Below are positions 42,938 to 43,393 of a DNA stretch of 64,000 nt, piece after piece. Position 1 is the first letter of the stretch; each line of letters opens with the position of its first letter. This DNA is from Escherichia phage vB_EcoM_G2285. The position numbers and the translations under genes are program-made. The notes under the pieces were generated by a model. The model was not told the origin of the DNA, made no database searches, and saw only the letters and a program-made list of their open reading frames with translations. The stretch lies in sequence record MK327933.1; one strand, given 5' to 3'.

Positions 42938-43393
42938 TTATTTTAGATCTTCGGCCCAATCTAGTTTTAAGGGTTCTTTGTATTCACGGTCGAGAATAAC
43001 CGGAATAGCTACATCACCACTGAATGATAGTTGGCCAACGTTATATGATAACGTTATATGTGGAGTGTAGTCGTCGAAATCATGAGTAGCACCTAAAGCT
43101 CGTGCATACTGATGACGACATCTAAGATATTCGGAATCAAGAACTAAAACCAGTACAGCGCCGTCGTCAGTTTTCCATACCTCAAAGTGTCCTGATTCGG
43201 CAACAGAATAACTACCACTAGATGTAGTATATGGTATGTTTACACGTGAATAACAAATTGTTGAATGAAGCTTTTCGCGTGGTACCGGATTAGGAATTCT
43301 TAATTTGCGCTGGAGGTCTTCCAGCGCGTCAAGTGTTAATTCCGAAAATTTAGCTGCGACGTAGAGGCCTTGTGAAAAGTCCTCAAATTTCAT
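42938..43393 (-). CDS. acb1: Anti-CBASS protein Acb1 (gp57B), 2H-phosphoesterase-type cyclic oligonucleotide nuclease
   Basis: 151 aa; two H-x-T/S-x motifs (H43 in LHSTI, H112 in PHITL); directly upstream of 57A as in T4. Confidence 0.7.

Follow-up and report, generated by a model that had tools for sequence, protein, structure and literature searches.

In phage T4, deletion of acb1 (57B) causes a >300-fold defect on CBASS+ hosts, and its product is the cGAMP- and cAAA-degrading activity of infected cells (PMC9117128). Activity of the purified protein is known only for the T4 enzyme and for nine homologues put to the test (PMC9117128). Hobbs et al. (2022; PMC9117128) identified a catalytic tetrad in the T4 enzyme (H44, T46, H113 and T115), four base-stacking residues (Y12, W74, F107 and W147), a glutamate, E141, that reads adenine N6, and a C-terminal lid comprising residues 145-152. 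According to later reports, T4 Acb1 acts on 2'3'-c-di-AMP too and sets off the Panoptes decoy system on over-expression (PMC12657218; preprint 10.1101/2025.08.21.671373). Deletion of acb1 from T4 leaves Panoptes defence unchanged (PMC12657218).

We analysed a window of 64,000 nucleotides from Escherichia phage vB_EcoM_G2285 (MK327933.1). The open reading frame at 42938..43393 very probably encodes a functional single-domain Acb1 that removes CBASS signals by the route proposed below. This reading is built on the intact frame, family membership, the residues named in T4, the fold, purifying selection and synteny.

The acb1 gene and its product

The gene and its principal parts are as follows.

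42938..43393, minus strand: acb1 (57B) coding sequence, ATG start, TAA stop, 456 nt, 151 aa (ORF list)
43267..43256, minus strand: catalytic motif 1, H43-S44-T45-I46, containing the equivalents of T4 H44 and T46 (sequence and mapping)
43060..43049, minus strand: catalytic motif 2, H112-I113-T114-L115, containing the equivalents of T4 H113 and T115 (sequence and mapping)
42941..42964, minus strand: C-terminal lid, residues 144-151 (T4 145-152, as defined in PMC9117128), with W146 (T4 W147)

The earlier note had called the gene present and apparently intact, with two H-x-T/S-x motifs at H43 and H112 and a 2H-phosphoesterase-type product of known function. Each of these points is borne out. The frame is uninterrupted from ATG to TAA over 151 codons and its product matches the Pfam Acb1 family from end to end; both motifs can be read off the sequence under the residue numbers given; profile, crystal-structure and predicted-fold comparisons agree on an Acb1 of the 2H type; and identical proteins are in RefSeq already. 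Opposite-strand ORFs overlapping acb1 in the ORF list are only 30 aa long and none is of note.

The sole Pfam match of the product is Acb1 (PF23474; E=1.3e-58, 197.3 bits against a cut-off of 27), in which residues 8-149 align to profile positions 1-144 of 144, covering the whole domain. A sequence search of the PDB returned Acb1 of Erwinia phage FBB1 (7T26/7T27; E=1.1e-58). Matches of this strength are well outside what chance would give. The earlier note had proposed alignment with T4 Acb1 as a check, loss of the catalytic histidines counting against its call. Aligned with T4 57B/Acb1 (NP_049750.1, from NC_000866), the product is 85% identical, without internal gaps, and retains both catalytic histidines and both threonines. 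T4 Acb1 has an extra N-terminal Met, so that residue numbers in the window are those of T4 minus 1.

Amino acid identity rises to 100% with YP_010100035 of Escherichia phage p000v (genus Mosigvirus), and nucleotide identity is 99.3% with several public records. The gene was found in 154 phage records at a coverage of at least 80%, with nucleotide identity of at least 95% in 152 of them. By these matches the window belongs to a T-even phage of the Mosigvirus type. Certain deposited entries already call the gene product a 'cyclic phosphodiesterase' or an 'anti-CBASS Acb1-like protein', and UniRef homologues carry the name Acb1. An NCBIfam scan of Acb1, of the Acb2 homologue and of both internal proteins described below gave no matches, which reflects the coverage of that library. 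By all sequence and structure criteria examined the product is a member of the Acb1 family. It is an ordinary copy of the T4-type gene, already known, with identical copies in public databases.

Functional residues and predicted fold

The nine residues to which PMC9117128 assigns a part in catalysis or ligand contact are all found at equivalent positions.

Catalytic tetrad: H43, T45, H112 and T114 here; H44, T46, H113 and T115 in T4; all retained
Base-stacking aromatics: Y11, W73, F106 and W146 here; Y12, W74, F107 and W147 in T4; all retained
Adenine N6 reader: E140 here; E141 in T4; retained

Twenty-two substitutions separate the protein from T4 Acb1, none at these positions. Conservation across the family was read from an alignment of 42 homologues, with identities down to 30%, drawn from a search of 5.8 billion proteins. 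Residues G9, Y11, H43, T45, S49, L81, V82, G101, D105, P111, H112 and T114 are invariant in the 42 sequences, and E140 and W146 are retained in at least 90% of them.

An AlphaFold2 model built on the same 42-sequence alignment has a mean pLDDT of 89.2 and a pTM of 0.82, with low confidence confined to the extreme termini. Low pLDDT at residues 148-151 is consistent with their place in the lid, which in the apo form is described as flexible (PMC9117128). As modelled, the protein has a 2H phosphoesterase fold that is compact, with a central β-sheet pocket and a C-terminal lid. Foldseek placed apo FBB1 Acb1 first among PDB entries (7T26; TM 0.94 by target length, r.m.s.d. 1.0 Å, 63% identity), followed by FBB1 Acb1 with 3'3'-cGAMP (7T27; r.m.s.d. 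1.8 Å), with TM scores of 0.92-0.94 across the two. The phosphodiesterase of Burkholderia phage BCSR5 came next, at a TM of about 0.54-0.68, and LigT-type 2H enzymes were distant matches (TM 0.41-0.52, r.m.s.d. 7-9 Å, E about 7e-5, 13-16% identity).

Proposed mechanism and target

We infer catalysis by this allele, as well as its range of substrates, its route of expression and an anti-CBASS effect in vivo. By homology to T4 and FBB1 Acb1, a U-shaped pocket would capture 3'-5'-linked cyclic di- and trinucleotides with at least one adenosine, the predicted ligands being 3'3'-cGAMP, cUA, cAAA and cAAG. Y11, W73, F106 and W146 would stack on the ligand bases while E140 reads adenine N6, with the C-terminal lid closing on top. 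Strain imposed by the enzyme would then favour attack by the adenosine 2'-OH on the adjacent phosphodiester, 3' of the adenosine, with the H43/T45/H112/T114 tetrad providing metal-independent acid-base catalysis. The resulting cyclic-phosphate intermediate would be hydrolysed to a linear product such as GpAp. With the signal removed, CBASS effectors (nucleases, phospholipases and others) would stay inactive; the phage would complete its cycle because signal removal prevents their activation.

Differences in the core of 2H phosphodiesterases can shift their substrate preference (preprint 10.1101/2025.08.21.671373). A shifted range in the Mosigvirus allele, for example reduced activity on 2'3'-c-di-AMP, is conceivable since its 22 differences from T4 lie outside the known contacts; the sequence itself gives no pointer to such a shift, which we consider improbable. 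If the range were shifted in this way, CBASS signals could be degraded without tripping decoy-nucleotide systems such as Panoptes.

Less probable still is that the product is an active Acb1-type enzyme whose selectively important target in the hosts of this phage is not CBASS. The candidate targets would be the cA3 of type III CRISPR and other cyclic dinucleotides, such as 2'3'-c-di-AMP or host 3'3'-c-di-AMP. Against the first speaks the rarity of type III CRISPR in E. coli and Shigella. Of the viral 2H phosphodiesterases tested, the T4 enzyme ranks with the most promiscuous, and its substrates include 2'3'-c-di-AMP and cA3 (10.1101/2025.08.21.671373; PMC9117128). CBASS evasion is nevertheless the only in vivo phenotype demonstrated for the orthologue (PMC9117128), and degradation of 2'3'-c-di-AMP is a liability rather than a benefit, given the activation of Panoptes on over-expression (PMC12657218; 10.1101/2025.08.21.671373). 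Removal of CBASS signals remains the preferred role.

Gene order and expression

Four genes precede acb1 in the direction of transcription.

45103-45924, minus strand: gp2 homologue, annotated as DNA end protector in p000v
44416-45006, minus strand: gp3, weak gp19-family Pfam match; tail tube terminator, gene 3, in p000v
43628..44362, minus strand: gene 1 (dNMP kinase), Pfam DNMK E=6e-97
43393..43623, minus strand: 57A (tail-fibre assembly helper gp57), immediately 5' of acb1, Pfam GP57 E=5.9e-23

In the direction of transcription the order is gp2, gp3, gp1, 57A, acb1, two internal-protein genes and a trna.4-like gene. The segment 3-1-57A-acb1-internal protein is common to T4 and p000v, and in nearly all of the 32 related loci acb1 starts where a short ORF of the size of 57A ends. 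The window thus has the T-even 57A-57B-ip synteny, acb1 being flanked on its 5' side directly by 57A and on its 3' side by the internal-protein/trna.4 region. The earlier note had described acb1 as lying in a conserved position upstream of 57A, omitting the strand. The conserved position stands and the direction does not: 57A and acb1 both lie on the minus strand, where transcription runs towards lower coordinates, which puts acb1 immediately downstream (3') of 57A. 'Upstream' holds in plus-strand coordinates only.

Only 4 nt separate gene 1 from 57A, and the TAA stop of 57A shares one base with the ATG of acb1 (TAATG, within GAATAATGAAA). From this spacing, the most likely arrangement is a shared transcript for gene 1, 57A and acb1, with translation of acb1 coupled to that of 57A through TAATG. 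A search of the minus strand from 41900 to 46600 for a MotA-box middle promoter ((a/t)(a/t)TGCTT(t/c)A or, in relaxed form, TGCTT, together with a -10) returned none. In a sigma-70 scan, matches upstream of acb1 were weak (9/12) and lay inside coding sequence, and the total of 22 was not above that in shuffled sequences (17.1±4.8); hence, no dedicated acb1 promoter can be claimed. Because no strong sigma-70-type or MotA-box promoter was found directly upstream, we infer the expression route from gene spacing.

On the minus strand, gene 1 contains at 43985 the T4 late-promoter consensus TATAAATA, 592 nt upstream of the start codon of acb1. T4 has the motif at -602, and 10 of the 32 related loci have it between about -580 and -605. 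This site could be a late promoter for 57A and acb1, and would fit the onset of Acb1 activity about 15 min into T4 infection (PMC9117128); we regard it as a lead and not as a finding.

Purifying selection on acb1

Selection was assessed on 33 related loci from IMG/VR, with dN/dS calculated by the Nei-Gojobori method on 32. The one excluded (L019, Pectobacterium phage PM2-like) is a locus without an ATG start, its start probably being TTG. Where dN/dS could be estimated, in 18 of the 32 loci, it was 0.035-0.14, indicating that acb1 is under strong purifying selection. Synonymous sites were saturated in the other 14, most of which keep 74-84% amino acid identity (32% for L036, a distant locus). 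Among the 32 loci, 30 carry all nine functional residues unchanged; one of the remaining two has an F-to-Y change (L034) and the most distant, L036, has two differences.

The signature is one of purifying selection and not of decay. It is extremely unlikely that the frame is intact but decaying, unexpressed or inactivated by substitutions outside the known motifs, a reading to which the 22 substitutions relative to T4 and the lack of a detected dedicated promoter directly upstream would lend themselves. Relatives that are 99% identical give dN/dS values of 0.035-0.095; elsewhere amino acid identity of 70-85% is kept while synonymous sites saturate; the functional residues are all retained; and the gene occurs at near full length in the 154 phage records. 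Moreover, the one-base overlap with 57A offers a route to expression by coupled translation.

The 'RNA ligase' label

RefSeq and PHROG 755 label Acb1 orthologues, T4 57B included, as 'RNA ligase' (for example in NC_055781 and NC_000866). This label is a stale carry-over from the 2H/LigT superfamily and hides a characterised anti-defence gene. That the product is a LigT-like 2'-5' RNA ligase or a cyclic phosphodiesterase of RNA repair, with RNA ends rather than immune signals as its substrate, as those annotations and the distant fold matches to E. coli LigT and other 2H enzymes would have it, is scarcely credible: the label applies at the level of the superfamily, the 85%-identical T4 orthologue is the cGAMP/cAAA-degrading activity (PMC9117128), similarity to the Acb1 fold (TM 0.94, r.m.s.d. 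1.0 Å) is far above that to LigT (7-9 Å), and the protein has the base-stacking residues and lid specific to Acb1. Membership of LigT or the 2'-5' RNA ligases was rejected, with neither close fold similarity nor a profile match (no LigT or 2_5_RNA_ligase family in the Pfam search at E<=0.01).

A variable locus 3' of acb1

Beyond acb1 lie two genes for internal head proteins and a set of promoter-hairpin repeats.

42887..42923, minus strand: PeSL-type element directly 3' of acb1, TTTACA-N17-TATAGT over hairpin ATAGGGCTA/TAGTCCTAT (promoter scan, repeat search)
42549..42857, minus strand: gene a, opening the variable locus and coding for an internal head protein of 102 aa (PHROG 2667 E=3.3e-39), N-terminus MKTFKEFINE|A
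42512-42548 (hairpin 42512-42537), minus strand: PeSL-type element before internal head protein gene b, nearly identical copy
42224..42499, minus strand: internal head protein gene b, 91 aa, PHROG 7673 E=2.3e-48
42184-42220 (hairpin 42184-42209), minus strand: PeSL-type element in the third gap 3' of acb1, nearly identical copy
37367-37392, 36072-36097 and 26595-26620: further hairpin copies (repeat search)

The earlier note had taken the neighbouring locus to be variable, and the related loci bear this out: between acb1 and the conserved trna.4-like gene they carry from zero to three internal-protein genes (32-33 loci). Even phages with a 99%-identical acb1 have either none (L004 and L005) or two (L006). 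The locus thus does vary, and the conserved block before it ends with acb1.

Gene a has no match in Pfam. Gene b probably starts at an internal ATG at 42487, as its PHROG alignment begins at residue 5; from there it would encode 87 aa with the N-terminus MKTFNEFISE|S. This N-terminus and that of a (MKTFKEFINE|A) look like capsid-targeting sequences. Compared with T4 ipI and ipII, neither internal protein is homologous. T4 IPI inhibits GmrSD (PMC9117128; PMC4122927), and by analogy with it the locus that holds a and b may have a counter-defence role, as the earlier note supposed.

The 80-nt spacer after the acb1 stop carries the first promoter-plus-hairpin element, whose promoter has a TG extension and overlaps a perfect hairpin, ATAGGGCTA-loop-TAGTCCTAT, with a fold of -14 kcal/mol (z=-3.2). 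The 26-nt hairpin ATAGGACTATGTTATAGTAGTCCTAT, overlapped by TTTACA-N17-TATAGT, occurs once per intergenic gap in three gaps 3' of acb1. In the window as a whole the repeat is present in six copies against 0 expected by chance, its hairpins folding at -14 to -17.5 kcal/mol (z -3.2 to -5.7). The PST/T4-type PeSL consensus is TTTACW-N17-TAYWAT, and PeSL promoter-stem-loops have been proposed as mediators of modular shuffling in the hyperplastic regions of T4-type phages (Comeau et al. 2014; PMC4122927). Judged by their sequence, the repeated elements agree with the published PeSL type. At the PeSL-type element 3' of acb1 the conserved block gives way to the variable internal-protein locus.

Other genes in the window and significance

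A second anti-CBASS gene lies 12 kb from acb1.

30539-30799, minus strand: Acb2 (Vs.4) homologue, 65.5% identity to T4 Vs.4, Pfam PF24729 (Acb2_Tad1_hairpin) E=4.2e-18

Acb2 is a cyclic-nucleotide sponge. With acb1 and the Acb2 homologue present, the phage carries both known T4 anti-CBASS genes. Given a working-looking Acb1 and an Acb2 homologue, it should resist many CBASS systems. On current reports, exposure to Panoptes-type decoy systems would come clearly through Acb2; for Acb1 it is so far seen only on over-expression. These points bear on host-range prediction and on the choice of therapeutic phages. The value of the analysis lies mainly in annotation: the call is confirmed, the wording 'upstream' corrected and a stale 'RNA ligase' label flagged, and no new biological question is raised.

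Two further observations were made elsewhere in the window. In the vs.8 homologue (31693-32344, minus strand), residues 1-41 of T4 Vs.8 match at 32344..32222 and residues 26-219 at 32280..31696 in another frame, and no ORF there exceeds 195 aa, whereas the T4 protein has 219 aa; a frameshift, an indel or a sequencing error relative to T4 is possible. The tRNA genes at 41053-41205 (minus strand) number only two, Met-CAT and Asn-GTT. The corresponding T4 region has eight tRNAs, segB and two small stable RNAs, so the cluster in the window is much reduced.

Comparison with known systems

The known 2H enzymes can be ordered by their distance from the acb1 product. E. coli LigT and the wider 2H superfamily share the fold and the duplicated HxT/S catalytic dyad, but differ in having 13-16% identity, an r.m.s.d. 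of 7-9 Å, no Pfam match to the product and other substrates. The enzyme of Burkholderia phage BCSR5 (PDB 9Q2G/9Q2Y, deposited as 'Anti-CBASS protein Acb1') likewise has the 2H fold and two HxT motifs, whereas its identity is 16-18%, its TM 0.54-0.68 and its r.m.s.d. 4.4-6.5 Å. These values place it in a different structural lineage. It may be the N-terminal-lid 'PDE-9' of a recent preprint, which has its lid at the N terminus, in contrast to the C-terminal lid of Acb1, and spares 2'3'-c-di-AMP (preprint 10.1101/2025.08.21.671373).

Acb1 of Erwinia phage FBB1 is much closer, with 61-63% identity, and the model superposes on it at 1.0 Å (apo) and 1.8 Å (complex). Its sequence is more divergent than that of T4, and the crystal construct is without residues 1-7. 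T4 Acb1 (57B) is 85% identical over the full length and has the same HxT/HxT tetrad, the same stacking residues, the equivalent of E140 (E141) and the lid Trp; in both phages acb1 follows 57A and precedes an internal-protein locus. The two differ by the 22 substitutions, by an overlap with 57A of 4 nt in T4 against 1 nt (TAATG) here, and by the downstream internal-protein genes, which in the window belong to families other than that of T4 ipI.

Closest are the Mosigvirus orthologues (p000v YP_010100035, ATK47, and Mizar, where the gene is named 'anti-CBASS Acb1-like protein'), with identity to the p000v protein complete. Here the difference lies downstream, where the internal-protein genes vary in number and kind: p000v has one and the window has two.
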